From assembly GCA_001662655.1 (NCBI GenBank), contig KV460230.1: a DNA stretch of 64,000 bases. The stretch is one strand, 5' to 3'. Within the stretch, counting starts at the first letter, position 1, and the number at the start of each line of letters is the position of its first letter. This document shows, piece by piece, positions 1-20,809 of the stretch. This DNA comes from Pseudogymnoascus verrucosus. Its lineage: Eukaryota. The notes beneath the pieces were generated by a model. It had not been told where the DNA came from and did no database searches. It worked only from the letters and a program-made list of their open reading frames with translations. The position numbers and the translations under genes were made by a program.

Positions 1-34
1 AGGGCAGATCAATTGATTACTTCTACTATTTGTG

Positions 35-161
35 GTTTACGGTTAGGCCGGGCCAACCGTAAACCGGAAAAATCATGGTTGGACCGGCCAGTTCATGAAC
101 GGGCCGGCCAGTTCATGAACCAGAATAGTTCACGGTTGGGCCGGAACATATATCAACCCTG
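35..161. mobile_element. Terminus of a probable hAT-like DNA transposon with subterminal repeats
   Basis: Ends ...tatcaaccctg (reverse complement begins CAGGGTTGATA, a CAG-start TIR as in hAT elements). Contains GGCCAGTTCATGAAC twice and inverted AACCGT(A/G)AAC motifs. Family assignment is inference. Confidence 0.5.
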
Positions 162-299
162 AATTTGTTCCTATAATTATAAATTCGACTGTGTCCCTCT
201 ATTTATACCTCATCTCCTTCTCAGTTCGGGCAGAGGCGAATCGCCCTGGGAGAGGGAGGATGTGGCATTACCCTACGAGCAAGACGGTCTCCAATAACC

Positions 300-761
300 A
301 CATATAGGCTAGTAAAATCCATGACGCTATGTCACTTACAAGCTTCTTAAACCCCATCGAAGAGAGCGAAGAAGAGGATATAATTACTAATGAGAATACA
401 ATTCTATAGGAGGTAATATAGGAGCATTTGGGCCTACAATCAGCTGGAGCCGAAGCTGACGAAGAAGAAGAAGAATAGAACAGCCATTACTAACGCTACT
501 AGAAGCCCGCTAAGCTCTTTAAGTTCTTATAGAATATATAGAAGGATCAAATACGCTTGGGAAATCATATTCTAGGGCCTTAGAGCGCCTTACTACTGAT
601 ATTGAGGCTCTAGTAATATCATCAAGGCGGCAGAGTACTCTAGATAGTTGGTTTACATAGTCATTCAATTTTATCACGTGTTTCTAGTATACCGATATTT
701 CAATTATAACGATATAAAAGTCTGGTCAAAATTACATCGTTATAACAGGGGTCCGACTGTA
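300..761 (+). mobile_element. RIP-mutated 3' fragment of a pogo/Tigger-like (Tc1-mariner superfamily) transposon with right TIR and TA target site
   Basis: 481-660 translates as QPLLTLLEAR*AL*VLIEYIEGSNTLGKSYSRALERLTTDIEALVISSRRQSTLDSWFT*, with the QxTLDSWF tail typical of pogo transposases. Internal stops are TAA/TAG at likely Gln codons. TIR-like end ...cgttataacaggggtccgactg (to 759) is followed by TA. Confidence 0.75.
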
Positions 762-882
762 AGCGAATGCCAGCCTTGCTCAACGGCAAAAGGCCCCAAC
801 ATCTTTAAATACTTTCTTCCAGTGTCTCATTTTATTCCATCACGTCTACTATTATTGTGTATCTCCGTTTTTTTTTATAAAC

Positions 883-3800
883 ATGGTCGAAGCAGTTGCG
901 CTCGTTGGCCTTACTGGCTCAATCCTCCAATTTGTTGACTTCAGCTCTAAAGTTATTAGACGGCTACGGGATTTCCAGTCTTCGCTCAAAGAAAAACAAA
1001 ATATATTCAGCAACTTACTAGTCATACTACCTTTTATGAGAGACGCACTGGATGGCTTATGTAACCCGGATGTGACAAAATATTTGAGTGAACAAACTGA
1101 GGTTGTTCTTCACATGATCAGAGGATGCGTTGCTCAGGTTGAATTGCTTGAAGGGTTTATGAGGAGAACAATTCCAAAAGAAGATGAGACTTCATTCAAC
1201 TAAAGATGGAAAGCACTCTGTAGCCTTGCTCGCGAAGAGGATGTCAAGCAAGCCGCTAGGCGTCTTCGTCAGTTCTCGAATTTCCTGATCTTGCATCAAT
1301 CTATTCATACTTCGCACCTTAGCACTCAAGTGCTTAGTCGACTTACAGCTCTAGAAGAAATCGCCAAGACGGCAACTGAAACTTTTAATCAGTCGACTGG
1401 GAGCCGAAGAAAAGACGACACAGAATGTGTCTGAAAGCAATAAGGGAGATAGTATCCACTCCCTCATACAGCCTCAGCGACAAGTTAAAAGGCCAACTAC
1501 TTATTCAGATCAATCAGGCACACTATTCTTAAACGACAGATGTGGTTGTTCTTGCCACAAACTGTTGTCAAAGTCTGCCCGTTTCTGGTCTTGGAAACTG
1601 ACCTCACTTGCTAATCTTCTTTCCGCCTGCGACAGGCCATCTTGTGCGAACAAGACTATCCGTACGTCGGTTTACATCAGCCTCTCTCATTTCAACATTC
1701 GTCAAGCCATTCATCTTGGGTTGGGCTTTGCATGGGGCGAGAGTGGATGTTCATTGTCGTTTGTGCTTCGCCCTTCTCGAACTGTCAAATACACATCTCC
1801 CGGATTTGTGCTACTATGGAAATGCGAAACAATGCAACTTCGGTGGCCAGAGGCCCAAACGATGCTAGCAAAGCTCTTCAACGAAAAAGAAGCCTCACCG
1901 GAGGACGTTGACCCATCGGGGAAGACATGGCTAGAGGTAAGTTTACCATATTTGTTTTTAAGTCGAGAGCTAAATTTTAATGTATTTTAGAAGTTATTGC
2001 AATATCCATGGAAGTTCGGCTCTAAAGAAGCACAATTTGGGCTCTTCAAATTGCTGGTGGAGTCTGGCGCAAAGCTGGATACCGATATGTCGTAAGTTTA
2101 GAAGAAATTATGCTGTTTTACACTTCGTTGACTCTTGACATGTAATTTCTAGACTGCTATGTCTCTGTGCTCACTGGATTGGAGAAGCTCCACACTTGAG
2201 TACAGTGGAAGAATTACTAGACCATGGATATGATGTTTCGTTAGTAAACTCTCAGTCGTTATTGAGTTGGCCAGAGCCTTCCAACCCTTGCTGGATAAGT
2301 GAAGAAATGACCCCTGATCCCTTCTTCATTGGACTTATCGGAAAATGTGTGAAAAACGACCCTAGTGAGTATGTCTGCGTCGTCACAAAAACAATTGCTA
2401 ATGAATCTTCTCATGCACAGGTTTCGGCGACACAACCCCTCTCATGGAAGCTGCCTTAATAGGATCTGAACAAGAACTCCGTCAACACTTCTCGAAGTCT
2501 CATGATCTCAAAATAAATTTCTTGGGCCAATCTGTGCTTCACCTTGCCATATTGCGTCCTAAAGTTTTGCGGTGGCCCATCTCGATCTACGAGACTGTAG
2601 ATATGCCAGACAAGAATGGGACGACTCCGTTGATGTATGCAGCCGCATATGACAAAGCCGAATCAGCACTCCTATTGCTAGATCAAGGAGCTGATCCCAG
2701 AGTAACTGATCGGCTTCGGCAACGTAACTTCTTGGATTATGCGCTTACTCGAGACAACTGGAGCTTCATTACCGTAGTAGTTAATCATCTCAAACAACGC
2801 TACGAAGCCCACTCTTATCAAGGTATGCTTAACTACATCATGCAAGCATATGTTTTATCTCGCGAGAATCGGTGGGGGGAGAAGCATTTTCAAGAACTGC
2901 TTTCCATGGGAGCTGATTCCAATATGATATTTTATGACGAAAGCACGCTTCTCCACCAAACACAGGATGTTAATGAAGTAGAAGCGCTTTTCCGAGCTGG
3001 ATTTGTAAGGATTAATCACCAGGACAGGAGTGGCATCACACCGCTTATGAAAGTGGTTAGGTTGAAAAATGCCGCTTTAGTCGAAGCATGTTTAGGCAAG
3101 GGCGCTTCCATTAATGAGAGAGACCACAGGGGATGGACAGCACTACATCATATTGCTCAGGAACTACAAAAGTCAAGGAGCACCTCCTATGACCCCGATT
3201 CTGCGGATTGGTATTTGCTACTACATTCAGAGCTTCTCGATACAGTAAGACTACTTCTTCGACATGGAGCAGACCCTGCAGCAAGAGATCACTGTGTATG
3301 CGCTTGTTCACTCTCAGGATGTACACCTTCGACTGTCCTACTAGGAAAGGGAGATTTTCCATGTCTTTTTCCGAATGGGGATATGTGGTCGTTAGAATGG
3401 CTTCAGATATTATCAGAGCTTGGATCTGAGGATACTGGAGAGCAAAGGATGCTTGATTTGGTTAGAGTTAAGCAGTTCGAGAAGCGTGAATTGACTCATG
3501 TCTGCTGCCAGAGAGGCTTTTATTCGCAACTCGACGAGGACGACTTTCATGAAATTATAGACGAGGAAAACGAGGGCATACAGGAAGTTGACGAAATGAT
3601 GCAATGTTACTTAGAATGCGGTAGAGGCAATGTCCAGGAGAGATGGATTGAGCAGCTTTCATTGATGTCAAACCCGCAAGGAATACATTCACTGGACAGA
3701 GTCGTAGCTAACGGGCAGCGTAAGTTAAGACAGCCTCCTATCAAACCCTATTGGGACTTACATTCTAAGTGAACTAACACTTCATGGTGTATTAAAGGGT

Positions 3801-3997
3801 CTAGCAGTTAAAGATCCTATACGTGTCAATTCGTTCTCTAGATACAATATTAACACTGTCCGAGACAGATTCGAGGAGCACTTTGGCCCTCTATCTTCCT
3901 TTCCGCTACGAGAGCAAATTAATATGAAGGACTATTGCATCTGGCTCGAATACTACTACAACAATCAGGCAAAATTCAGCACATCGTATTCTGTTAA
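883..3997 (+). pseudogene. Ankyrin-repeat protein with SesA/HeLo-like fungal N-terminal domain (NLR-related architecture), disrupted; Starship cargo
   Basis: N-terminus MVEAVALVGLTGSILQFVDFSSKVIRRL. Ankyrin motifs GTTPLMYAA, GITPLMKVV and GWTALHHIA. Introns at about 1937-1990, 2092-2152, 2365-2420 and 3720-3804. In-frame TAA at 1201-1203, after which the frame continues RWKALCSLAREE. Frameshift near 1430. The last exon runs into antisense captain sequence at ~3998. Confidence 0.75.
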
Positions 3998-5974
3998 TCA
4001 TAAAACAGCCTGTCCTTCTTTGCTCTGTAGATCTTTAGTAACTAATAATGCATTTGCGATACGATTGCGTTCCGGCATAAGGTGGCGGATCAAAGGAAAC
4101 TTGCTAGCTGGTTTTGGTAAAGTTTCATCATCCTCTCCTTCTTGTTGCAATTGCCGTTGAGCCTCTTCATCGAAACTACCAGAGAACCACTTCTCTCTAT
4201 GTGACGCGCGAGCTGATTAGAGTAGATTACTTTTTTCAGTGTATAGTTTATGTCGCTCTTTGAACTAGGCTAAGCCTTTGTTAGGATTTAGAGGTATCTT
4301 TGCCGTCGCCTCCTTAATGCGCTTATTTAGCTCTTGAACTTCAGGCTGTTAATGAAACTCATCTTTCTCTTTGCATGTAAGGTCTCTAGGGGCGTTCTAG
4401 TCACGTCGATGACCTACGCTACATAACACCTTAATGTGTTTAGTAGATCTAACTTTGTTAGAGAACAAAGCAAATATATTCTCTTTAACAAGCCCTAACC
4501 TATAGTATTCCTTATATACAGCATCGCTTTTCTAACCTATAACTTGTTTGCGTATCTAAGGATCTTAACACAATTAGAAGATATTAAGTATAATATAGAT
4601 TAAACTCACCTTTAATCTTATTTACAACCCTAGCGCAGATTGCATAGATCTTCACATTGTCCCTATAGCTAGCACGTTTTGTAAGAGAGACGATTTAATC
4701 TTAGAGAGATACGAATGTTAGTGCCCTATTTTCGTGTACGCTATTTGAAGATACCATTCAAAGGACAGGACAGTTAAGGGCTTCGTCTTTCCATTTTAAA
4801 GTCCACGAATCTCTTCCTCTTAGCACGCGAGCCTTCAAAAGCTTTTCTAAAGTCTCAAAGTGTTTAAAAGCATTGTTAGCTATTACTATAGTAAAAAAAG
4901 ACATTACTCTATTATCTTATAGATTGTCTGTTAACTCTATAACGATCTTAAGGCTATGTCTAGTAAGCATTGCCTATAGTGTTCTGCAAAGTTACATACT
5001 TATCATTCTTATCATTACGTTTTCCTTTTAATAATCGCTAAACTACTATAAGCTTAAAAGTAAAACTGCTATTAGCCTCTCGTAACAAGTGAACATAGCA
5101 ATCCTAATTAGTTAGCAAATTATCGCACTTTTTAGACTTAACATACCTTATAAGCAATTACTTCATTTATTCCCCTATAAGAGCTTAACTCTATATAGGC
5201 ACTACCTCTAGCGCTACTATTAGCAAAGAAAAGCAAAGTAAACGATATCTAGAGCCTATAGCGCTTATATAGATAGTTATAATCATTAGAACACTATAGA
5301 TATGTTATTAGCATTATTAGGTCTATGTTAGTAACTAAGTATTTGTTATGTTTCTTTATACTTAGACTAAGGTTGTCTTTTAAAGATCTTTTAATATACT
5401 AGATATATGTTAATTAACATTTAATAAAAGGGGATTATAGATTATATACTAGCTACATTACTAACAATGTCCTTAGTAAGCTTAGATTTTATAGCTTAAG
5501 TATAATAGCTAACATATTAGTACTATATATTAACAATACTATAGACTATTAGAAGTTCCTTAATTTAACTATATTATAATAAAGCATAGTATTTAACAAA
5601 GTCTTTATATAGAGTGCTGTTATGTTATAGTAATGACTCTATCTCTATATCCTTTATAGCTAGAAAACTAATATATCTATTAGTAGCACTATACATAGTG
5701 TTAAGTCTTATGTACTTTTAAAATACCTCTCCTATGTCTATGTGCCTAACTTTAGTAGCGCTAGAGAGATATTTTTGTTCAACTTAACCTATTATATTCT
5801 TTTCCTTAAATGTTTTCTACTTAAAGTAGCCTTATAACTATGCTAGAGCAGCTTATTCTTCTTTAGAGAGAGTTTTTCACCCTATAGTTCTAGGGTCCTT
5901 AAAAGTAAATAAAGAATGTTGTAGATGGTAGAATTCAAAATCTAAACATAGCAGGAGCGTTTCTTTTATACCAT
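3998..5974 (-). pseudogene. DUF3435 tyrosine recombinase (Starship captain), RIP-inactivated and 3'-truncated
   Basis: Manual minus-strand translation gives DUF3435-type blocks: YLYKRYRL*ISFTLLFFANSSARGSAYIELSSYRGINEVIAYK (~5150-5280, catalytic R in S[G]AR); LTKRASYRDNVKIYAICARVVNKIK followed by a gtgag intron (~4610-4690); RKQVIG*KSDAVYKEYY (~4500-4555); GHRRD*NAPRDL (~4380-4420); LIRHLMPERNRIANALLVTKDLQSKEGQAVL (~4000-4095). Very TpA-rich. Candidate ATG at 5974. Confidence 0.85.
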
Positions 5975-5980
5975 TTTTAA

Positions 5981-6036
5981 GCTCACCCTCGCTTACCTTG
6001 CTTACCCTCGCTCACCCTACTCACCTTCGCTCACCT
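5981..6036. repeat. Degenerate ~10-bp tandem repeat (GCTCACCCTC) just upstream of the captain ATG
   Basis: gctcaccctc gcttaccttg cttaccctcg ctcaccctac tcaccttcgc tcacct, about 6 units. Confidence 0.85.
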
Positions 6037-6242
6037 AGGTACCGGATTATCTATAGCCATCTAAAGTCGCAGTGCATCGCGTTCATCGCGTCTCAATACA
6101 TGACCCACTTCGTGCGTGTCGACGTGGCTGCTATTAGGAAGCTAAGGGGGATAACCGGATTATCGTAAGGCATCAAAAACTTAAGGGCGGCGACGCTCAC
6201 CCGCTAGTCCAAATGGCACCGTCCTGAGTATTAATCCACTGA

Positions 6243-6307
6243 AAGCTTGAGATCGGTGGATTAGTAGTTGGGTGGGTGACCACCAGCGAATACCCACTGT
6301 TGTATGT
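6243..6307 (+). pseudogene. 5S rRNA gene, 3' half only (about nt 55-119)
   Basis: Identical to 18757-18821 of the intact 5S gene and followed by a T-run Pol III terminator. The 5' half is absent. Confidence 0.95.
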
Positions 6308-8285
6308 TTTTTTTGCCTCATTTTTTTTTGTTGCTTGTGTGGACTCTACTGTGGATAGTTGTCACGATCGTGGTAATAGGTATATCGCGGAATCGAGGCC
6401 CCTTATGGCATGAAGGGTGAGCAGGGGGTGAGTTGGATGAAAGCGAGGCAGAGGAACATTTTCATATCAACACCGAAGTTTGGCCATCGTAGCATACATA
6501 CCATAAGGATGAGAGCTTCATCCAACTCATGCGGCCCTGAGGGGACATCTCCTCAAATCTCTCATCTCGATGTAATGTTTCCACGCAATAGAATCAATGA
6601 ATTCCCGCACATCTTGTGTAGAGGCATTACTGAATTGTTGATTTTGAGGTCCGCCTGATTCATGCGTTTGGCGTCCGCAATCATCACACTCCTTCAGTCC
6701 AGATTTCCAGCCACAGCACCCGCTCCGGTGTTACTTCCCGACATGTTTGCGTTATTCACTGAGATCTGGCTAACTTCCTCAAGACTGTCACTTCTCACAC
6801 TGGACTCTTCCGAAGGACTTCGGTCTCGGTATGTTGTGAACGCTCCTCTTTCTCGGCTTCTTTCCCACTCAGGTTCCCGAGCGCCTTCACCTTCCATACA
6901 AGTCGATCCACCTCACAGCTCTAAATCGCCGTTCACTGACTGTAGGGTTTTTATGTGGTTACTGCTCACGAGCCTCTTATAACAAAAGGCCACCGTCCCT
7001 CAAGAGGAATCGTTAACCAAAAGTCGGCTAGACAAAACGTTTGACGTGTTGTACCGCAGTCGTAATGAGGTCGCGGGCGATTTTCAAAAACACAGTCATT
7101 CGCAAAGAAACTGATCGACGCCGTAAGTGGTGGCTTCTCTATGCGGTAGGTACGGTGGTTCTTGCTGTCGCTATGGTGTTCTCACCCCCGCTCTTCTCGT
7201 GATACGCCTTCTTGCCACCATCACCTGCCCACAATTCAAATTCTCGTCACCGCCACCCTCCCTATCGACACATTCATATCCCTACCCCTTCCCATCTCGG
7301 CGCCTGCCTGACCCCCGTTCCCGCGTGTTGGGCAGACTTGTCATGCTGCCGGAGGATATTCATCATGACTCTCTCTTGGTAATTCTTTGTGGGATTGAAG
7401 GATGTTTGAGGAGGAGCAGCGGGGTTTTATATTTCGAGACGGTCAGTGAGAGGGGTGAGCAGGAGCAGGAATTTAGACGGACTACTCTTTTATCCCGTGT
7501 CGAGGAGAAATCGGGAACAGGGGGGGGGGCTATATGATGGACTCTAGAATCTGGGAATACAGCTTGTTTCATTCACCGGCTACCGAAAAACCTTTTTTTG
7601 ACGTTGTGATTGTGGCCGAGAATATACCTTTTTATGTGTTGAGTGGTTTACTCAACCTCTTCGGCTTCTCGATATGGTAGACACGGTGGTTCTTGTTGTC
7701 GCGATGGTGCTGTCACCTTCCCTTCTTCTTCTCGTGACACGGGTTCTTGTTGTCGTGATGACCTTCTCACCTCTCCTTTCTCACCAGATAGATTCTCAAC
7801 CAGTAACCCCATAACCACCACACTTCCCACACCCACCGTTCACGAGTTTCGATTGTCAACATGTTACGCGCATTGGTTCCAGCAGCTTGTTTGTCCTAGA
7901 GAATTTTGTTTCATGCTGGATAGGCAATAGGAACGGCCGGAGCGAACACTAAATACCTAGAGCTGTTCTCGGCTTTGGCTTACTGCTGCTGGAATGAAAT
8001 GGCGATTTTCACTCTGAGGAAGGCGTTTTATACTTATTCCCTGTCCGCAGTGAAGAGCTCAGCTCAGCTGGTGAGCTTGGGGTCCGGGTTTTACTTTTTT
8101 TGTTCTTGGGGAAAGTGGGAAGAGCGAAGAGGGGAGAAGGGGGGATAAGGGGGGATAAGATGGGTGAAGGGGGGATAAGGGGGGATAAGATGGGTGATAG
8201 AGGATATATATATATATTTTTCATTCACTGCTCACCTTGGATATTTTGCTTCATTGACTAGTTCTATTGGCAGAAAATGCCTCTC

Positions 8286-8333
8286 GCGCATGCAAAGCGC
8301 ATGCAAAGCGCATGCAAAGCGCATGCAAAGCGC
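8286..8333. repeat. 11-bp tandem repeat (GCGCATGCAAA)x4
   Basis: Four perfect copies plus GCGC. Confidence 0.95.
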
Positions 8334-8779
8334 CGTATCCGCATAGCTAAAGCCGTAATACAGTGCATCTAAAACCGTCGAACGTAGATAAACAAACTGA
8401 TTGCGAAGACTGTCATATAGAGGCATATCAGTTCGTCGACCTTCGTTGGCTTCTTAGAAGCTTAACTTACTAACCTTAAACATGTTGAGTTATTTCATCA
8501 GATCTTTGAATAATGGTACAGGTAGTAGGGAAGCATAATTGTCGTATTCAAAGGATGAGGAGACATATCTGCATACCTCGCGATACGTATTCTTAGGAGC
8601 TTGCGTGTCACTAGGTCATTGGGTGAGAGTGTAGAGTTGTAGTTACACGGCATTGCTGTCACGCTGAGGTCCAATTACTGGAAAACCAGACACGAAATAA
8701 CTAGAGCTTCGACTCAATGATCCCCATCATCCTTTCTCCTGAACAACTGAATTAATACGGACCTGAGAACTTTGACACT

Positions 8780-9843
8780 ATGAGCTTCTGTTGTATTCTT
8801 TGTGATCGGTCCTTCAATATCAAAAACGCGCTACAACAGCACCTGCGGGATTCGCCAGCGCATGCCCTGTCCTTTAACTGCGATGACTGCGATCGATCTT
8901 TCAGTAGCGAGGAGGCACTGCAGCAGCACCTGCGGGATTCACCAGCGCATGCCCCGTCCTTCAACTGCGATGACTGCGATCGATCTTTCAGTAGCGAGGA
9001 GGCACTGCAGCAGCACCTACGGGATTCACCAGCGCATGCCCCGTCCTTCGATTGCGATGACTGCGATCGATCTTTTAATAGCGAAGAGGCGCTGCAACAA
9101 CACCTGCAAGATTCGCCAGCGCATGCTCCGTCCTTTGACTGCAATGACTGCGATCGATCTTTTAATAGCGAAGAGGCGCTGCAACAACACCTGCGGGATT
9201 CGCCAGCGCATGCCCCGTCCTTCGACTGTGAAACCTGCGATCGTCACTACGGCAGTGAGGAAGCTCTACAGCAGCATCTGCGGGACTCTCACGTTAACCA
9301 ACAGGATACGGAGACTCCTTTAGATGCCTTTTTCCGCTCTTTCCCAATGTTTGATTATGACCCTTCTCTCTCCCCCGCTACTTCTTATGCCAAGTTGCAG
9401 AGACACGAAGGATGGCACCGCGGGAATGCCGCGTCGGAAGATGCGTGGGACAGATACCAAGGTGCGCTGCAGAACGAACTACACATGTGGTATGGTGCAG
9501 AGAGCGATTTGACTGCGTGGCATGCGCTTTGTCGCGCGATCGGTGTCAAGCCGCTTCCAAAAACGAGCGAGCAATGCGAGCAGGTACGTACCGCATAACG
9601 AAAGTTGGTGGATTTATGATGACACGAATAAAGGCTGTGCGAAAGACACAGGTCAACATCGTTGATTTGATCGAATGGGGACGAAGTGGTAGTAAGGGAA
9701 GAGTTCGGACCTTTCGTGATGTAGAAGAGCTGCGAGCCTACACTAAGGAGACAGGCAAGATATTTCACAATATGTTCGCCAAAGAAAGCAGCAATGTTGT
9801 CTTGAGACACCTGCTTCGACATATCTTTCGAGTGAGCTTGTGA
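8780..9843 (+). CDS. C2H2 zinc-finger tandem-repeat protein with conserved fungal C-terminal domain; join(8780..9583,9634..9843)
   Basis: Six CxxC...HxxxxxxH fingers in 29-aa (87-bp) repeats, SFNCDDCDRSFSSEEALQQHLRDSPAHAP. GT-AG intron 9584-9633 joins CEQ to AVRKTQVNIVDLIEW. Confidence 0.85.
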
Positions 9844-10124
9844 AACAGAAACAAGGTCATCATAAGGTCGGACAGTAGAGTTACATCTGTAAATGCTGTT
9901 ATCTGATCCAGATCTACGTGATACAGCAACGGAGATTCTTGCTAATCTAGATCAATTGGAGCTTCAAGTTAACTCTCCTGATATCCGTTTAAGTCCGTGG
10001 AGAGTATAGGGTTATTTTAGTTGATCTTATTGGAAACTTTCCAGAGTATGTGGTCTATCCTATGTGAAGGGTTAGGAGGGGTGAAGATTTGCTGCCCGTA
10101 AAAATAATATATAATAAATTTGCC

Positions 10125-11332
10125 TTACGGGCCATTTTCAAGCTCATACGTGTTGGATGGATACAGTGTGCCCTTCTTGAGAATAACAAGCGGATGGTGA
10201 TAAAGTCCCGATTGAGTTGGAACACTCCAAGCCTGAACCGGTTGTTTCTGCGCTAGTTCCCAAAAAAGGTCCATGCTGTAAAGCTCCTCAGATCGCACAG
10301 CATAGAACCAGGTCAATAACGTATACAAACTGACCTTTAATCGGCCTTCATAATGCTCCGCCCCAGCTGCTGAATCTGCTGATGGAGGTGGAGGAGGAGG
10401 TGTGGTTGAAGGGACGAACTTCGCGTCATACGCCCATATCCACGGTGTACGAGTGTTAATGCACGCATTCACAACCTCGGGAGTGACGAGTAGGAAAGTA
10501 TTAGTCAGAATACGTGGATTTGGGTCAACCTCTCCTGCCACTCGGTCTTGGAAAATGCTAGAATATTGTCAGTCAAGGAAATTTGAGGAAAGAGTAGGAA
10601 ATAGGCAGACCTGCGTAAAATTTCAGGGCTACTCTCAGACACAAGCCCGTCTGAGAAAGTAAACTCTTTCGTTGGGATGATGGCTGTGCCGCCCTTCAAC
10701 AGCCTGAGGCCCTCATCCACGCGACTGTCCATAACCGTAAGAAACCTTTCCCAAGAGTCATTGTTGCTGTCACCAATTGTTGCACTATCCCTGAAGACAA
10801 CAAACCCCCAGCGTCTAGTCTGATTGCTCCATGACACGGATGGGTCGATAAGTTTCCGTACCCATTTGCAAGGCTGCTTCATGTCCTCAGCGTAACTCTC
10901 CAATCTCGCCTTGGTTTCTTTTGCTCTGGCAGCTGAAAAGTCGTTTGCCCGACATCTAACAGCTAACGATACAGCGTCATCCCGAGGAGTTACAAGTGCA
11001 CGACGAGCTTTCAAGTGAGCCGTCCGATCCTCGTGACACCAGTGAATTTTGCTGTTTGCTGTCGACTCCCATGGATCCCAAATGTGGTACCCATTTCTCA
11101 TTAAACGGCATTCTTCAGATGTCATCGACTCGGGACTTGTGAGGGCTTTGTTCTCCAATTCTTCCGGTGTTAATCCACTGACTTCGAGGGCGTGGGCAAT
11201 TTGTGTAGTGAGGTCCGCTTGTCGAAGTACAATGAGTCTTTCGGCGTCTGTCACCTCACCTGGAGTTTGTACAGCCTTGGCCCATAACTCCCTCTCTAGA
11301 GGAGTAGGATAAACGTCCTTCGGGAGGTCCAT
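10125..11332 (-). CDS. Hypothetical fungal protein; complement(join(10125..10557,10611..11332))
   Basis: Two ORFs join in frame across intron 10558-10610 (GT...CTGAC...TAG). Contains a WGFVVFR motif seen in fungal hypothetical proteins. Confidence 0.75.
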
Positions 11333-11384
11333 GCTTGATGTTTTCCAAGAGTGGTGATTTGGATGCGATTTACAGTCGATGTGA

Positions 11385-11481
11385 CCTCACCCCGCGGCTA
11401 ACCCTCGCTTCACCCCTAAGGCGGCAAGGGGCTCACCGGCTAGGCCGGGATGTCACCAACCGAAGTAAAAAGCAAGTGGTT
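11385..11481 (-). mobile_element. Second Starship-like terminus (element B), homologous to the 6182-6242 terminus
   Basis: Aligns with the element A end at the same distance from the 5S junction (taaggcggc...gctcaccggctaggcc...atgtcacc..cc..agta). Includes GCTAACCCTC/CTCACCCC-type subterminal motifs. Confidence 0.65.
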
Positions 11482-11544
11482 GCTTGAGATCGGTGGATTA
11501 GTAGTTGGGTGGGTGACCACCAGCGAATACCCACTGTTGTATGT
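11482..11544 (+). pseudogene. 5S rRNA gene, 3' half only (about nt 57-119)
   Basis: Identical to 18759-18821, with a T-run terminator. The 5' half is absent. Confidence 0.95.
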
Positions 11545-14500
11545 TTTTGTTTTGTTATTTTTTGTGGTTGCCTTTTTTTGCACCAGGCTTGAAAGCGGTA
11601 AGGAGACCCTGGGGGGGGGGAAGGAGCTCAGAAGACACATCATCCGTGTGAACCACTTGATTTTCTGAGTCCTTGAATTCCTTTTAAGGCAGGTGTATGG
11701 CTGATGTATTGACCATACCGGGTTTCTAGAGAGGAGAACTGATATATTGTTCTTAGGCTGTCTTCTTTTGCTCCATGATTAAAGCAGTTTCCCCCAGCAT
11801 AGCCTTATTTATATTTATGCTCATCAGTGAGGAGCTACTTTGGCGGCGCATGTGCTGGATGTCACTATAACAGCGAGACAAAACGGTGTACGTTTTGGAA
11901 ACTAATCGACTTGACCGGTGACTCTGACGTGGTCGTGTACGTGATAGATGTGAATAGAGGGTTCTGTCGTGGTGGTGTTCTCACCTACCATTCTTCTCGT
12001 GATACGGGTTCTACTTCTCACCACATACCTTCTCACCACCACCCCCCTCCTGTCACCTCCAATACACCATCCCCAGAAGCATTCAAGAGTCGCTAGGGGG
12101 AAGTTCGAAAGACACCTCTTGTGTGCGTGTGGCCCGTTTTACGTCAGTTCCATAAAAAAAAACCTTTCAGCTCCATATATCGCCGTTGGTTTGACGAAAC
12201 TTTCCTCTCAGGAGCTCTTTTTATACTTCGCCACTGCAGGAAGGAGTTCATCTCAGATTAGCTGGTGAGCCTGGGATCCCGAGTTTTGCTTCCTTTATCT
12301 TGTGTCTTGGGGAAATGGGAAAGAGGAAGGGGATATATGATATACGATAGACGTGCTATATATAGTCTAGTTAAGCCATTCCCAACCTATCCGCCTTGAA
12401 ACTCGTTTATGACAGTGTTCAGCCGTTATAAAGCAATCCCAATTCCGACTGTACAATGTCTTGTGGGTTCTTACTGTTGCGATGGTGCACTCAGCTCCCC
12501 TTCTTCTCAGGATACGGGTTCTTCCTGTTGCGCACTATTCTCACCTCTACTTCTCACCACAAACCTTCTCACCACCGCCACGCCCCCGTCACCTCCAACC
12601 CCCCACCCTCAAAGAACCCAGGAGCCGCCGCTCGAGACCAGCTTAGCATGCACCTCGTGTATGTGTCACCTATCAACCATTTTCCGTCATTTGACCACTT
12701 GAAAGTGCAGCTCATCCAATTTTTGGATATCAGCACCACCAGCGTCTTCAAACCCGAATAAAACCCCACGAGGGGCCCTATATTATCCCAGCCCCAGGGG
12801 AGACCTGTCGAAATGTTTATACTTCTTTATTTTGTCCTGCAACCGAGGATGTTTTCGTTCCAGAAGCTCGTTTTATACCCCGTCCTCGTCCCTGGAAGAG
12901 GGAGCTTATCTCAGCTCAGCTCAGTTTAGATGGTGAGTCTGGAATCCTGTTTTACTGTACGGCGATGGTGTTGTTGTTGTTGTTGTTGTCTCACTTCAAA
13001 TAGGGATGGGATGGATGGGGGAGACACGGGTCACGGTGGTGGTTTGGGGTGAGACACATAGGTTGGACGCGTATATACTGCATGCCAGATAGGGGGGTAT
13101 ATACCGTACATATCGTATTAGATGTCAAAAGGGGGATTGATTGCTTTTTGATCCGCCTCCTGTCGCGAGTGACACCATACCATACCCCTACCATACACCC
13201 TTTCACGTGACCACCACCGTTGACTGGTTCGGGTGATCGACATGTCCTGGTTCGCGCCGCTGTGACTGACTGGTTGACATGTTTGATAGTTCGGATGGCG
13301 ATATATTGTGGTTCTTTTGAAGAAATATTTTCTTCCTGCATGGTTGGGTGGATTAGGGAGGCAAGGACTGACTGGTTCTGACATGCGTAGGGGGGGAACT
13401 TGGCAGGTTGTGGTGTGTGTGTACGCAGTGAACTGTGGTTCGTGTGAGGCGAATATTGGTATAAGGTGGAACAGTCTTGGTGTAGGGCTGACTGGGTATA
13501 GGATGGATGACTGGTTGAAGGCTGACTGGTTGGGTAGTGTGTATGGTATTGTGCTGTGGTTATTGGGTAGAAAATTTGAAGAAGTTGATGTAAAATTCTT
13601 CTTCGTGGCGGCGTGGCGGCTTGGTATGTGCTGTTCGCCTCCTGTGCGGTGAGTTGTCGCGTCGTCGCTGCCAGCTATGCTGCCAACTCTGCTGTCAACT
13701 CTGCTGTCAACTCTGATTCATCCCTAATATCCCATCCCATCCCTCATCTCCACTACCAGACATACTCACCACCATCCAAAAACCACATGTCATAAAAAAC
13801 AACACCACCTCCTGAGCTTCAGACACACACACATCCCTCAGACACCCAATTGTCCAGACCACCAGATCGTCCCGATCGGCTGCCGAGCAACAAACACCTT
13901 CACCTTCACCAGTAGTGCATTTCCCAAAGCGTGCGCTCCTGTGCACCTCTGCTCTCTCCTCAGCACATCTCCGATTAAGTTTGTGTGCAGCGCGGCAGAT
14001 GAGAACTGTATCTGGACAAAGGGAGTGGAACCGTGAAAATGACGCGAAAGCTTGGTTGGTGCTGATCCCAATCACCACCATTTAAGAGGCGAGAGTAGAC
14101 AACAAAGCGCATGCAAACTATCCCGTAGTGTCACCAGAGTAAAGTGCTCAAAGTGCGCAAAGTGCGCATATACCAAGACTAACCAAGGCTAACCCAAGGC
14201 TAACCCAAGCCTATAAACCACTTCTGTAAAGGTCACTTATGCCAAACTGGCGTATTACCTCACATGGGACTCACCTCACATCCCGTACCGCCTGCTCATT
14301 TCCATCAATGCAACCCTCCCATCAGCCAATCAGCGCGTCGCAGGACCTGAAATACGCCCTGATGGCTGCTGTGTTCCTGCCTGTGGGTTCGCCTCAAATC
14401 TCGCTAACGCGTAGTAACTCCCTTATTCGGGTCTAGCTTCCCGTTCGCTTGCTTTCCCCCTTCGCACCTTTAGCATCTTTAGCACGCGCTCACTACAGAT

Positions 14501-15328
14501 GTGGACAGCACGGGGTACGGGGAGCGTTAGCGCCACCCCCCCTGATGGTAACTGTTTGGCCAGACCCCGTGTCTTGTGCGTTGATCGCACGCCCGGCACG
14601 CGTTTACTGGTAATTAACACCAATTTACACCAATTTACTCCGGCTTTTTCTCATTTTACGATCCACACCCCCCTCCCCCCCCAAACAACTCTACCTCTCA
14701 CTACCTCTCCCATAAACACCAGTCCATTCCATAGTAAACAAGTAATCTCTTACTCCGTACACCCCCCTTTCCTCTTCCCTCCCTCAACCAGACACACGTT
14801 CCTTTTCTGTTCCCCCCCCTGGTTTCCTCAATCTGCGGTCCCCACTCTTCTTCCTAACCGGTCACTTTACGGTCACTTTACACACTACTACTCTACTTGC
14901 CGCCCTCATTTCGTTCTTGTCCTCTCCACACCTTCTACCAACTTCCTCACTTCACCGTTCTATTTCCACCCAACTGAGAGTCAAGACTCTCAATCACACT
15001 CCTTTGGAAGGTCGCTGTCGGTGAATACACTCTTTGATCAGGAAATTCACTTTACCTTCAACCTTTCGTCGTCGTCAACTTCACCTTTGAAACCCGGGAT
15101 CAACAACAGCACACAGCTGTCTGTTATCAATCCGATCAACCCAATGTGAGTAGACCCTCTCCCCTCTCCTTCAACAGATTGAATATGATTCAATTCCACG
15201 CATCAATCGCGCTGGATTGTTTTCCAACGCGCAAACATTCTCAATTGCGAACAAAGCGCCTCCATACAACTAGAAACTGACAACTCCTCCTTCGCGTCCA
15301 GACCAAAGAACTACACGAACCCTTCACA

Positions 15329-16663
15329 ATGAAGCTCATCACCATCGCCCTCGTCGGCGCCTCTGCCGTGGCCGCGGCTTCCCACCGCCACGTGCATCGC
15401 CATGCTCCCCACGTCCGCGGCTCCGCAGTCGCCAAGCGCGCCGACGCAACCGTCGTTGAGGACGCCGTCGTGACCAAGTACGAGATGAACGGCAAGGAGC
15501 TCAACGCCGCCAAGGTCGAGCAGGGTGTCAAGGACGGAATCTACATCCTCCTCGACGACACCACCTCTGCTGCCCCTGTTCCCACCAAGGCTGCCGTCGC
15601 CGCCGGTGAGTTCTTGGAGCAGAAGAAGCCCACCACCCCAGCGGCTCCATCGACCACCAGCGTTGCGCCACCACCTCCGCCACCAACCACGAGCGCCGCC
15701 CCCGTCGTGCCGACCCCGGCTCCTTCTTCGGGAGGTGGTTCCGGTGCCACCGGCCTTGACGCCGACTTCCCCAGCGGAACCATCGACTGCGACCAGTTCC
15801 CCTCCGCCTACGGCCCCGTCGCTGCCGAGTGGCTCAACCTCGGCGGCTGGACCGGTCTCCAGATGACCCCCAGCTTCAGCCCTGGTGATGCCGCGATCCA
15901 CCTGATCAACACCGGTATCGGTGGCGACAACTGCATCAAGAACTCCTTCTGCTCGTACGCCTGCCCACCCGGATACCAGAAGTCCCAGTGGCCCTCTTCC
16001 CAGGGCGCAACCGGCCAGTCCATCGGCGGTCTCTACTGTAACGCCCAGGGCAAGCTCGAGCTCACCAACCCCACTCTGTCCAAGACTCTCTGCATCAAGG
16101 GAACTGGCGAGGTTAAGGTTAAGAACACCATCGGCCGCAACGTCCCCATCTGCCGTACCGACTACCCCGGTACCGAGTCTGAGACCGTCGCTCTCGACAC
16201 CCAGCCCGGCCAGGAGTACGAGCTCACCTGCCCCGACGCCAACAAGTACTACAGATGGGGCAACGCCGCCACCTCGGCCCAGTACTACATCAACCCCGCT
16301 GGATCCCCTCTCAAGGATGCGTGCCGCTGGAACGAGGCCGGCTCGAACATGGGTAACTGGGCTCCCGTTAACTTGGGTGTCGGAAAGGGACCTACTGGCG
16401 AGACGTACATCTCGATCTTCCAGAACAAGCCTACCAACCCTGATGGAAAGCTCAACTTCAACTTGGAGATTGTGGGTGATGTTAGCGGAAAGTGCGCGTA
16501 CATTGATGGCCAGTTCTATAACAATGGTGTTGCTGACCCAAGTGGTTGCACTGTAAGTCTTGATTCCCCCCCTCACCATCTTCATATCACTCCAAGAAAA
16601 CCGGTTTTCTAACACAACCACCAGGTTCTCGTCACCGGCACCGCCACCTACAAGATCTACTAG
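15329..16663 (+). CDS. SUN1: Secreted SUN-family (GH132) beta-1,3-glucanase, Sun4/Uth1/Sim1-like; join(15329..16552,16625..16663)
   Basis: Signal peptide, His-rich HRHVHRH, Pro/Thr linker and the SUN motif CSYACPPGYQKSQWPSSQGATGQSIGGLYC. Intron 16553-16624, and a probable 5' UTR intron at ~15145-15302. Confidence 0.93.
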
Positions 16664-17289
16664 ATTTACTCTCTCTAGTTTCTTGTACCAATAATTCCAC
16701 CATTCGCGCTACCAGTTCGATTTTCCAATAACAGCCCAGCCCCAGCCCAAGTCTTCTTATTTGTTGAGACAATTGCTGAACACAAACACGTACATAATAA
16801 GATGTCCCTGCACACAAACAACACAAACTAGTTCATAGCAGTTACATGAAATGATGATTCTTTCTAAAACACTACTACACAATTCGATTCTAATTTAATG
16901 CTTTCTTCGTTTTTGTTTTTTGCTTATTTGCTGTTTACTCTCTTTGCGTGTTTTTGCAGTGTTTTTCTTGCTTGGACTGGTGATGGTGTGATGTAGATCG
17001 TCAACCTGATACTGTTTGAAGCTTGAAAAACGAGTGATGTTCGGTGGTGTGGTGAGGGTGAGTGAGGGGTGGGATGGCTGTGGTGAGCAAGGTGATTGTA
17101 TGTGTATGCAAACGTGCTACTGAAATGTGATGGAGTTATATGGTTACTGTGACCGACTGATCCTACAATCCTGCCCTCCCCTCCCCTCTCATTTCCACCC
17201 CTCTTTCCCCCACCATAACCGCCCCAACAGCCATCCCTAAGTGTGCACCACATACACATCTTTCGAACCAGACGCTATTCCGACTCGAG

Positions 17290-17486
17290 AAAGAAGGAAG
17301 GAGCAACCAGAACCACATTAACTAGGAAAGGGAAGGAACGACCCCCTCAACTGAGGAAAGAACGAGGGGCTTTCAGAGGGAAGGAACGACCTTGTAAAAA
17401 AAAGGGGGGGGGAGGAAGGAACGACGTATTAACTGACTGAGGAAGGAACGAACGACCTGAGTAAAAAAGGAAGGAAGGAACGACCC
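17290..17486. repeat. Cluster of about 6 dispersed GGAAGGAACGAC motifs
   Basis: Copies near 17330, 17354, 17378, 17413, 17440 and 17473. Confidence 0.75.
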
Positions 17487-18671
17487 GATTATAGAATAGA
17501 CGGAAAGGTCGAGAGCTGTGGTACGTATACCGTTAACTACTAATGTAACTTCGACTATTCTACTGACTGCCTATAGGTATAGCCTCCGGAGAAGGAACAT
17601 ATACACTGCTTCGCGCGGCGTCTTCTCGGGAGTATGTAGTGTGGAGATTGGATTGCTACTCGTCGAGGTTGTTGTCTGGCGGTTGGATGCGGTTAGGGGT
17701 GTATATATAGTTAGAGAAGACGGGGGAGGCGGTGGTGTGGAAAGTACGATGGCTGGTGCCGATCCATGCCACCTCGCTGGTTAGTAAAGGAGGTTATTGA
17801 GTCCTCTGGTAACACCCCTGCAGATGTGCCAGCAATGGCCATTTACTCTGCCTGGATCAAAGATGCCCTTGAGTCTGGAGAGATCATCGTTAGAGCCCAC
17901 TCGACACATACTGTGCTGGAAAAGGAGGTGGGAGCGGCAAGTCGGTCAACCCAAAACAGATCAGCATTTCAGGGGGGGGTTACGATTTGGGTTTGGAGGG
18001 TGGTTGGGGGGGGAGGGGGGAGGGGGGATTGTCGAGGGTGGTGCTGTTGATGTCGTTGCTCCTGTTGCTGTTGCTCATTCCTGATGCCGTCGTTCGTCCT
18101 GCTGCTGTCACTACTACCCCCATCTCTCGAATTTCCATCGCTCCCATTCCTATCTCTGCTGCGCTATCACCCCTTCCACTACCAACCCCCATGTCAAAAG
18201 TGGGCGCCTAGTAGATCAAATATCGGATGAGTAGTCCAATCCGATACGCGTCCAAGTCTGTCTTTTTATAGCCCCTGCACAGGTTTTTTTTACCATCCAG
18301 CGGATCGATTCTGTGTGAATGAGAAGTTTATCTCGCGCTGAGTCGAATAAGAACCCCTCCCCCCGGTCATTCATGTTCCTTCCTCGGCCCTCTCGCCTTT
18401 TTTCCATATCTCAGAGACGGTGCTATACCGGCGAGCTCATTCTCCTATTAGCTTTACTAGCCGCACAGATCATAGGTGGAGACTACATAACGCGGGAACC
18501 ATTATAACGGCACACAGTTCAAGAGCGACCAACAGGAGATTACTCTCAAGTCGAAGATCGCAGAACTAGAGAGATCTAGGTGACTCAACTTGTAGCCGTG
18601 ATGCCACAACCTCGAGACACAAAATCCTAGACGGCCGCCGGTTTAGCCAACCTATTGTATGCAGTATGGGG

Positions 18672-18680
18672 TTATATATA
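18672..18680 (+). promoter_or_regulatory. TATA-like element about 25-30 bp upstream of the 5S gene
   Basis: TTATATATA upstream of the 5S start, as is known for dispersed 5S genes of Neurospora. Confidence 0.6.
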
Positions 18681-18702
18681 CTCTACGTTGCGAACAACTG
18701 TC

Positions 18703-18821
18703 ACATACGACCATAGACTCAAGAGAATTGGGCATCCCGTCCGCTCTGCCATACACAAGCTTGAGATCGGTGGATTAGTAGTTGGGTGGGTGACCACCAG
18801 CGAATACCCACTGTTGTATGT
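18703..18821 (+). rRNA. 5S ribosomal RNA gene (intact, dispersed copy)
   Basis: 119 nt, ACATACGACCATAG...CTGTTGTATGT, with complementary ends, the conserved GATTAGTAGTTGGGTGGGTGACCACCAGCGAATACCC and a T-run terminator. Confidence 0.97.
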
Positions 18822-20809
18822 TTTTGCCTTTTTTTTTTGCCATTTTTAGCTATGGAATTACGAGGGCGTAGTTTGTTTGGGTTGAGAGGGAGGTTGATAT
18901 AAAAACGTATACTGTCCTGTCCGATCCCACTTCGCGTGGGGGGGCTACGATTCATGTTTGGACGGCGGGTGGTGGTGGCGCGGGATTGTTGATATTGGTG
19001 CTGTTGCTGCCGTTGCTCCTGCTGCTGTCGTCACCCCTGTTGCTGTCGCCCACCCTTGTTGCCGTCACCCCCTATTGCTGTCACCCCTTTCACCCATGCC
19101 CGCCCTCCCCATATCACCACCATCCTAGCGCAATCACAACCTACCTATCAACACACCCCCCCCAGCCGCAACTCACACACGCCATAAGAGAGGCATTGAT
19201 CTCCTTTGATGCATGGTCAAGAAGCAATATCTCTGGCAGCAGCAGGCCAACTATATATGTGTATCTCGACTACGGATTTCTGACCCAGTGGTGGTGCAGA
19301 CGTGCTTTAACACCAAGACGACACCGCGGTGACTGGTGTCTGCACAGCGACTTCGAGACGAGATACGGGTATGTTGGCATGCTGGTAGAATAGTTTTTGC
19401 GGGGACTTGTCGTCTTTTACTTCCTGGAGGGGGGGGGGAGGGGGAGGGAGGGGGACTTCATTATAAACCCACGATACTTCCTGTTTTCTGGTGTCTACCG
19501 TATCACGTCCTGTCCTCAAAATGTATTTGCGTGGAGAAACTTCGCCGCCTAGTCGGTATATGGATGACATGTATACACCGTAAAGAGCCTCAGAAAGTCC
19601 TAGCTTGCTGGACAAAGACAACTAAAGAATGATTTCGCTCAAGAGTACACCCATCTCTGAATATCAACCTGTCTTAAAAGCACGATTCGAGAGTGAGGAA
19701 AAACTCGCCTGCCTCTTCTCCAACGAGCTATAGCTACACGAGAGACTTGCTACAACCACACACCAGATCCTCAAACTGCACACGACAAGATCACGGTTGT
19801 GGCAAAGCGAGTCTCGGATGAGTTCAAGCTTGCTACCAAGAAGGAGAGGGAGCGCATTCGCAGAAAGCGGGTTGCCGAAGACGAATGGATGGTTATGATC
19901 TTGTTGCTATTGCTCCTGTTGCTGTCGCTCCTGTTCTTGTCACCCCTTTTCTTGTGACCCCTTTTCCTGTCACCCCTTTTCTGTCACCCCTTTTCTTGTC
20001 ACCCCTTTTCCTATCACCCCCTGTTCCTATCAAGCCTTTTCCTAGTACCCCCCGAGATAGTCTCGCTGCATAATAGAGTACATATCGGACGTGTAACCAA
20101 TCCGATAATTTGTTGTTGAGCTGCGGAAGTTCGCATCCTGGTGTCTTTCGCAGTATGATGACTCGTATAATACACCTGGATGCACAAGAAAGAAGCTTAT
20201 CTAGTGCTGAGTTGAATACGAAACCCCCCCCCCCCCTTCCCCCAACTCTGCCACCATCTTATTCCATGCATCCCACAAGCAGAAACGCATGTGGGGAGAT
20301 AATGGAGAAGTATGTATTCTGCCCCGGTCTTGCCCACACTGCTCACATAGAGGATTAGATATACCAGGAGGCCATATTTTGTGAATCTGTAATGTGTGAC
20401 TGGAATATCACCGGTAATAGCATATGTATGCCTTGCTCCCTCTCATATTGTCTGAATATCTATCGCGAGATCCCACATACCCACTTTTACGATATATGGA
20501 ACAAACTGTCTGCAATGTTGCCCTGGAAGGAGAGACAAGAGTGTGACGAGGGTATGAATAAATGTTTCTTCGGCCATGATACCGAAAGAGCACAAACAAT
20601 ATGCAGCGCCCAAACAGCATCGTGAACCAATATGCACTATGGGCAAAAGAGAGGATGAAGCTAATGAAGATAAATATGATACCGAGGCAGTTACAGATCT
20701 GGAATTAATAAACAAAATATTCGAGCGACAAATGAAGAACCTGTGTGGCGAACATAAAGCACTTTAAAATTACTATGCTACCATGTCCATTGCGGGTATG
20801 TCTGCGATA

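Follow-up and report, generated by a model that had tools for sequence, protein, structure and literature searches.

An inverted copy of 5S sequence at the end of a degraded Starship, and a possible recombinase-site model for insertion into 5S rRNA genes

How the captain of a Starship chooses its target is an open question, and several Starship families independently use 5S rRNA genes. We addressed this question at a locus where the end of one such element abuts the 3' part of a 5S gene, within the 64,000-nt stretch of DNA analysed here (the window). Tyrosine recombinases act on two inverted arms of 9 to 13 bp that flank an asymmetric overlap of 6 to 8 bp, in which the strands are exchanged. 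An initial reading of the letters alone (the sequence-only reading) had noted a repeat of this kind across the element/5S junction, and had proposed that the captain may recognize 5S because 5S mimics the terminal arm of the element itself. Is the junction a recombinase site, and which of the two partners is the mimic?

The window holds one intact 5S rRNA gene on the plus strand (18703 to 18822; Rfam RF00001, 74.2 bits, E = 7.7e-14), which served as the reference for an uninterrupted target. The 3' part of a truncated 5S gene (nt 55 to 120) lies at 6243 to 6306 (plus strand) and is identical to 18757 to 18822, and a second truncated 3' part, preceded by TTGCTTG, occupies 11480 to 11545 (plus strand), with 5S identity from 11482. 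These fragments, 5.2 kb apart, each adjoin the end of an inserted element, here called A and B, respectively. A search of the window at up to 3 mismatches found no second 5S 5' half.

The nature of element A is apparent from the gene nearest to its end. When the minus strand of 3773 to 6232 was translated with stops written as X, the product matched PF11917 (DUF3435) in two frames (E = 2.9e-11 and 6.2e-7). A protein search with the captain fragment returned 45 matches, mostly short fragments, and a single full-length relative, P0046, a 535-amino-acid protein labelled in its source as a hypothetical protein of Pseudogymnoascus sp. VKM F-4246. This nearest full-length relative is 74% identical to the best-kept part of the captain, and tblastn placed it on the window in five pieces and three frames, running from amino acid 1 at 5885 to amino acid 500 at 4001 with 55 to 82% identity. 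The gene (4001 to 5885, minus strand) is thus a captain pseudogene of the DUF3435 tyrosine recombinase type, which begins 357 nt in from the element end and is oriented toward the interior. It carries frameshifts, stops and a RIP signature (TpA/ApT of 1.53 to 1.58 and (CpA+TpG)/(ApC+GpT) of 0.56 to 0.73 over 4600 to 5950), and the G+C content of the captain region is 26 to 32%. Because a DUF3435 pseudogene lies on the minus strand 357 nt from 6242, this position is the captain-proximal 5' end of a dead, RIP-mutated, minus-strand Starship. The sequence-only reading had already called this a Starship end with a captain, and the degraded gene at 4001 to 5885 bears this out. The body of A includes an ankyrin-repeat open reading frame (2405 to 3772) and extends past the left edge of the window, so that its own left end lies outside. 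Ordinary host genes occupy the window from about 12 kb onward; farther along, 28727 to 28807 (minus strand) matches the C/D-box snoRNA Afu_199 at 35.6 bits, below the gathering score of 45.

Several repeated sequences lie between the captain start and the element end. Six GCTYACC units (5981 to 6035, plus strand) begin at 5981, 5991, 6000, 6010, 6019 and 6029, a spacing of 9 to 10 nt that corresponds to about one helical turn. A 25-nt direct repeat beginning ACCGGATTATC occurs at 6041 to 6065 and again at 6154 to 6178, and a loose end in related genome X2 (CGTGCTTACCCTGCTCACCCTGCTCACCAT before 11397) indicates similar arrays in other copies. The GCTYACC array and the 25-nt repeat may serve as accessory binding sites of the arm type, or else belong to a promoter.

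At the junction itself, the captain-proximal end of A closes with the 11-nt element-side arm TAATCCACTGA (6232 to 6242, plus strand), which is followed by the spacer AAGCTTGAGA (6243 to 6252) and the 5S-side arm TCGGTGGATTA (6253 to 6263). The two arms are complementary at 10 of 11 positions, the sole mismatch being T6240, where a C would pair; a script reproduced the strings and coordinates of the sequence-only reading exactly. The intact 5S gene reads CTGCCATACAC at the position of the left arm, so this arm belongs to the inserted element, as had been claimed. This 5' side of 5S has no arm matching the others. The core AAGCTT is a perfect palindrome. The uninterrupted 5S sequence around it is not palindromic (z = +0.38 for the fold of the corresponding 70 nt of the intact gene).

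To judge how far chance could produce such an arrangement, we compared the junction with several nulls. A 10/11 repeat straddling the junction with a spacer of at most 20 nt arose in 57 of 20,000 random 60-mers from the window and in 38 of 20,000 shuffles, and in 24 of 20,000 draws once 5S copies and element ends were excluded, which puts the chance rate at about 0.001 to 0.003. The whole window contains 25 inverted repeats of 10/11 quality, so the one at the A junction is notable by its position only. It does not stop at 11 nt, however. Extended to 14 nt (6229 to 6242 against 6253 to 6266), the repeat matches at 12 of 14 positions (10 of 20,000 draws), and both mismatches are an element T where a C would pair. 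Extended to 26 nt, the element arm CACCGTCCTGAGTATTAATCCACTGA (6217 to 6242, plus strand) matches 6253 to 6278 (plus strand; nt 65 to 90 of 5S, including TCGGTGGATTA) at 19 of 26 positions, a score reached in 0 of 200,000 random draws in the fixed register and in 0 of 20,000 when the best of 21 registers was taken. Local alignment of the A end with the reverse complement of 5S gave p = 0.007, against p = 0.60 for the direct-orientation control. As single-stranded DNA, the 70 nt from 6213 to 6282 fold into one long hairpin (-14.8 kcal/mol, z = -5.24, 0 of 200 shuffles). The 11-nt arms are therefore the best-kept core of an inverted repeat of about 26 nt, in which the element arm is a diverged inverted copy of 5S nt 65 to 90, and a chance origin of the repeat is effectively excluded.

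The similarity appears to be confined to this region. A semi-global test for inverted similarity over the distal 50 nt gave p = 0.096, 0.24 and 0.55. A MAFFT alignment had hinted at inverted similarity through the whole 5S 3' half and terminator, and this idea was dropped since the distal test was not significant. An origin of the arm from hairpin P nucleotides was also ruled out, because such additions would abut the break and here 10 nt separate arm from arm.

If the repeat has a role in recombination, its position relative to the crossover matters, and we located the latter with contigs of four related genomes placed on window positions 1 to 20000. Stretches without cover were not counted as evidence, and the figures for these genomes rest on the best-supported rows among the matches listed. 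In 8, 12, 15 and 16 contigs of the four relatives (among the matches listed), the 5S sequence is kept to 18763 (..ACACAAGCTTG, AAGCTTG) and then diverges. These contigs are left junctions of the family of A, in copies other than A's own. Since left junctions end in AAGCTTG and the right junction starts at 6243, where 5S identity begins, the repeat common to both is AAGCTTG (6243 to 6249, plus strand; 5S nt 55 to 61). Element B and a metagenomic junction described below (L001) carry TTGCTTG in its place, so that only GCTTG (6245 to 6249) is common to all. We infer from these strings a crossover of (AA)GCTTG, that is, 5 to 7 bp beginning at 6243 or 6245 and ending at 6249. The centre of the inverted repeat, at 6247.5, falls within one nucleotide of the crossover centre (6246 to 6247). 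The claim that the element end mirrors 5S holds, in that the element arm repeats, in inverted orientation, the stretch of 5S next to the crossover.

The same contigs point to a terminal inverted repeat (TIR). The commonest left-end consensus among the matches listed, ..TTGGTTAATACTCTC (agreement 0.57, mixed copies), forms a putative TIR with the right end of A, whose reverse complement is TCAGTGGATTAATACTCAGG. In a longer comparison, the reverse complement of the A right end, ..TGGATTAATACTC.., agrees with ..TGGTTAATACTC.. of the relatives at 12 of 13 positions with one gap, the latter being a mixed-copy consensus and not A's own left end. The motif TGG.TTA.TA is common to the left-end consensus and the 5S arm. 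Both the crossover and the TIR depend on loose-end consensus strings with agreement of 0.51 to 0.57. Window positions 1335 to 4002 have no counterpart in genomes X3, X5 and X6, and no contig bridges an empty site.

Farther left, positions 1 to 153 of the window are a multi-copy repeat with GGCCGG-rich palindromes and an inverted repeat (29 to 49 and 50 to 70). Its depth in the relatives is 5 to 8 times that of single-copy sequence, and it is often joined to 5S genes in contigs (152 to 18744, 153 to 18703 and 156 to 6314).

We then compared the end of A with two further right ends. One is that of element B. The other comes from a metagenome scan with DWWGCTTGAGATCGGTGGATTAG, which identified 8 loci on 5 contigs; L001 is the sole junction among them, with its element end at 1282/1283 and a P450-like open reading frame adjoining it. 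The extremities of the L001 contig (1 to 41 and 2883 to 2921) look like what we take to be sequencing-adapter sequence, so the contig ends are probably artefacts; the junction is internal and unaffected. The remaining 7 loci, spread over 4 contigs, belong to another species and are tandem 5S genes, all intact, in which a T precedes AAGCTTG. Among these, L003, L004 and L007 (overlapping L002, L005 and L008) are three intact tandem 5S genes 540 to 670 bp apart, in which the AAGCTTGAGATCGGTGGATTAG segment is identical, yet a T instead of a C precedes AAGCTTG. Scans of viral contigs and of genome contigs found nothing.

Conservation among the three ends is uneven. At the place equivalent to the inner arm of A, element B has AAAGCAAGTGG (11469 to 11479), just as the sequence-only reading wrote, and in both B and L001 just 5 of 11 positions pair with the 5S arm (hand count), or 7 of 14 over 14 nt. 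The 11-nt arm TAATCCACTGA, on whose conservation among close relatives that reading had made its model depend, is thus not kept. Of the last 14 columns, the three ends agree in only 4, and a subterminal block at 6184 to 6220 (plus strand) is far better conserved, with the invariant columns AAGG.CGGC..GCTCACC..CTAG.CC..ATG.CACC in the alignment of all three. What B and L001 do retain is the outer part of the arm, CACC..AGTA. The earlier model therefore needs correction here: the symmetry spans about 26 nt rather than 11, and it is the outer part, not TAATCCAC, that relatives keep.

In the register of A, matches to the reverse complement of 5S nt 65 to 90 number 19 of 26 for A, 16 of 26 for B (11454 to 11479, plus strand) and 14 of 26 for L001, while controls with direct-orientation 5S and with the reverse complement of the 5S 5' half gave 9 to 12 of 26. 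For B, the null probability is 2.1e-4 in the fixed register and 0.00275 for the best of 21 registers; for L001, the corresponding values are 3.2e-3 and 0.042. When the ends were aligned locally to the reverse complement of 5S without anchoring, the result was significant for A only (B, p = 0.074; L001, p = 0.39, with its best alignment elsewhere), so it is the in-register count that carries the case for B and L001. The fold of the B junction has its outer stem in register (z = -3.92), and that of L001 is weaker and pairs differently (z = -3.26). The three ends match one another at 16 to 17 of 26 positions (hand count). As they are homologous, they point to one common ancestor that was 5S-like in inverted orientation, not to three independent events, and because they share states unlike 5S, this ancestor already differed from 5S at some positions. 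Each of the three copies is dead or captain-less: the captain of A is degraded, B has no DUF3435 within 9900 to 11479 (the 1.6 kb before its end), and L001 has the P450-like open reading frame beside its end.

Positions 6243 to 11545 form a stack in which the end of Starship A is followed by a 5S 3' part, element B of about 5.1 kb, and another 5S 3' part. No 5S 5' half lies between A and B; instead, B is apparently bounded by TTGCTTG at 6331 to 6337 and at 11480 to 11486, and on its left it abuts the T-rich tail that ends the first 5S fragment, not a 5S 5' half. The TTGCTTG at 6331 to 6337 (plus strand) is a possible, weakly supported left direct repeat of B, 29 nt before 6367, a position at which contigs of relatives pass from a 5S 5' part into a B-like left end (18763 to 6367). 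Comparing the left end of B (6338 to 6382), the one actual left-end sequence available, with 5S in both orientations and with the right ends gave nothing significant (p = 0.17 to 0.96), so left ends add little to the case. One possibility is that the stacking arose from an element boundary that had once captured a 5S 3' half, rebuilding the target. In three related genomes, the body of B (6455 to 11391) occurs once and differs by about 2%, as the host flank does. Long contigs of X3 and X6 agree with the window as far as 10876, beyond which they run through at least 11.8 kb of DNA absent from window positions 1 to 20000, so the right part of B is arranged differently there, and B in these genomes is possibly a fuller element. 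Within B, an open reading frame at 8756 to 9598 encodes a run of C2H2 zinc fingers (zf-C2H2_jaz, E = 2.3e-34) derived from five 87-bp tandem repeats (8714 to 9288), and GCGCATGCAAA occurs in three copies at 8286 to 8329.

How does this junction compare with recombinase sites and with other Starships? The attL and attR sites formed from lambda attP and attB, and likewise loxP and dif, have inverted arms flanking a short asymmetric overlap, and after integration one junction pairs an element arm with a target arm. The junction of A resembles these in both respects. It differs in dimensions, since in those systems arms of 9 to 13 bp flank an overlap of 6 to 8 bp, whereas here the symmetry extends over about 26 nt, the best arms lie 10 nt apart around a 5- to 7-bp repeat, and binding is putative. 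The description of the repeat as recombinase-core-like holds for the placement of inverted arms around a crossover and is less certain for the spacing, as the best arms lie 10 nt apart and the repeat shared by the junctions is 7 bp, or 5 bp for B and L001.

Among Starships, the closest parallel is Osiris of A. fumigatus (Enterprise family), for which 5S direct repeats aagcc, aagccacacg and ttaagccac and a curated TIR, gaacgcggtcaataccc, are listed (PMC12153272, Tables S3/S4); Starship1 of A. nidulans SP-2605-48 likewise has an AAGCC repeat in 5S rDNA (PMC11162782, Table S1). The empty-site 5S blocks of PMC12153272 Table S4 align with the 5S gene of the window, and AAGCC and AAGCTTG accordingly start at the same coordinate; in both the Osiris sites and the window 5S, 10 nt separate CCGTCCGCTC from AAGC. 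The Osiris TIR also shares GGTYAATACYC with the left-end consensus found here. On the other hand, the 5S at the site reads AAGCTTGAGA here against AAGCCACACG there, the 5S genes of A. fumigatus and A. nidulans differing at nt 58 to 75, and the host differs. If the Osiris TIR directly adjoins the repeat, an adjacency that we assume, it matches its own 5S at 6 of 17 positions (hand count). The comparison covers insertion position and TIR, and the nearest full-length captain is from Pseudogymnoascus sp.; KFY08696 is not among the captains in the starfish tables through S10. By insertion position, A is a degraded Starship at an Osiris-type 5S site in a Leotiomycete-like genome.

Other 5S-targeting Starships use different positions. 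At least five independent 5S sites with repeats of 6 to 16 bp have been reported (PMC11162782), and Voyager of Macrophomina phaseolina is described as always inserted in 5S rDNA, with its captain at the 5' end (PMC9156397). The Voyager target, GCCCTGTATTCT, is placed there at 20 bp from where the 5S gene begins, compared with nt 55 to 61 for A. For Enterprise of Podospora, PMC11162782 (Gluck-Thaler and Vogan 2024) reports a true target that is a 10- to 12-bp palindrome with a repeat of 5 to 6 bp. This parallels the A junction in being a symmetric site around a short crossover; for Enterprise, though, the palindrome lies in the target itself, while here the symmetry arises at the element/5S junction only. 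Urquhart et al. 2023 proposed that Starship termini carry target-homologous sequence. In the accessible parts of the literature on 5S Starships, and leaving aside starfish tables S11 to S13, which may contain such ends, we came across no account of a Starship end related to 5S in inverted orientation, nor any report of captain-DNA binding for a 5S-targeting Starship.

The reading that we favor, with about even confidence, is that the A/5S junction is an attR-type tyrosine-recombinase site, with the captain reading both arms. The junction would then comprise an element arm C (6217 to 6242), a short asymmetric crossover (AA)GCTTG (6243 to 6249) and a 5S arm B' (6253 to 6278). The captain would bind the same kind of sequence at its own end and within 5S, and this shared recognition would both select 5S as the target and let the junction be cut again at excision. 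Several lines of evidence support an attR-type site: the repeat is non-random (10/11, 12/14 and 19/26, with hairpin z = -5.24 against +0.38), B and L001 match the 5S reverse complement in the register of A, and a DUF3435 gene lies 357 nt from the end and reads inward. The arms are inverted and centred on the crossover within one nucleotide, the left-end consensus forms a putative TIR with the A end and resembles the 5S arm, and the Osiris repeats sit at the homologous 5S position, with a TIR that shares GGTYAATACYC. Published work also proposes target-like termini and a palindromic Enterprise target. Other observations weaken it. B and L001 do not keep the inner 11 nt, the three ends are homologous and all dead or captain-less, and the best arms lie 10 nt apart rather than the 6 to 8 bp of studied tyrosine recombinases. 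The 5S 5' side (CTGCCATACAC) lacks a matching arm, the left end of B gives nothing significant (p = 0.17 to 0.96), the crossover and TIR rest on a 0.51 to 0.57 consensus of other copies, and the Osiris TIR, with adjacency assumed, matches its own 5S at just 6 of 17 positions. The proposal of the sequence-only reading that mimicry of 5S underlies target choice is thus left partly standing, in that the repeat is non-random and in register in B and L001, while its inner arm is unconserved and its direction is likely reversed. As 5S is the invariant partner, we infer that the element end changed to match 5S, or arose from it, and not the other way round, which makes the element end more likely the mimic of 5S.

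Symmetry of this kind could have other origins. The terminal 26 nt or so may be a relic of an inverted 5S capture in an ancestor of the family, for example, when copies that had entered the palindromic AAGCTT core rearranged with one another. It would then have no present role in recognition, and the functional recombinase sites would lie in other places, such as the subterminal block, which is better conserved. We regard this as unlikely, though it fits with each end being about as similar to the 5S reverse complement (14 to 19 of 26) as to the others (16 to 17 of 26), with terminal 14 nt that are less conserved than the block at 6184 to 6220, and with the perfect palindrome of the core. A captured fragment, however, predicts similarity continuing into the remaining 5S 3' half and terminator, where the distal p values were 0.096, 0.24 and 0.55; nor would random capture be expected to centre the repeat on the crossover, and the non-5S states shared by the three ends argue against an ancestor that was an exact 5S copy. 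It is very unlikely that a weak similarity between TIR and 5S was instead perfected in A after insertion by templated mutation (replication template switching), in which case the near-perfect inner arm would be a consequence of insertion and not its cause. Such sharpening would explain why the near-perfect inner 8-mer TAATCCAC/GTGGATTA occurs in copy A only, being absent from B and L001, and why the A arm (GGATTA) and the local 5S have in common an extra A that the left-end consensus (GGTTA) lacks. But contigs of X2 and X6 carry A-like ends from 6219 at other loci, with at least 85% identity (18838 to 6219), so other insertions besides the one in the window probably share the A-type arm, and the template switching itself is hypothetical.

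Less likely still is a role for the arm as a decoy for host factors, by which an inverted copy of the 5S internal control region would recruit the 5S-specific transcription factor or the Pol III machinery. The arm would then not be, or not only be, a recombinase site, and the host factor would bridge element and target, by analogy with the use of Pol III factors by Ty3, or alternatively regulate the captain. From its mapping in Xenopus and yeast, the internal control region has an intermediate element and a box C that overlap the mirrored 5S nt 65 to 90, and at about 26 nt the arm is longer than a typical core-type site. A repeat centred on the crossover is more simply explained by recombinase binding, however, and conservation across the three ends is patchy. 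That the resemblance arose by chance at one junction is scarcely credible: the window does contain 25 repeats of 10/11 quality, and many kinds of pattern could have been noticed, but 19 of 26 was reached in 0 of 200,000 draws, B and L001 match in register, and the hairpin has z = -5.24.

The architecture of this junction is, from its sequence, a testable hint on how Starships choose their targets. If the decoy explanation were true, 5S targeting by Starships would be guided by host factors rather than purely read from sequence, and if the arm is a relic only, part of the terminus of the A family is still built from 5S sequence. If the attR-type site is functional, the junction would provide a site model for the Osiris-type 5S position, consisting of an element arm, a 5- to 7-bp crossover and a 5S arm in a symmetric site of about 60 bp. 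Such a model would account for the unusually long repeats at 5S sites, would predict 5S variants that escape insertion, and would establish a mechanistic tie between these eukaryotic elements and the att sites of bacterial integrative elements.
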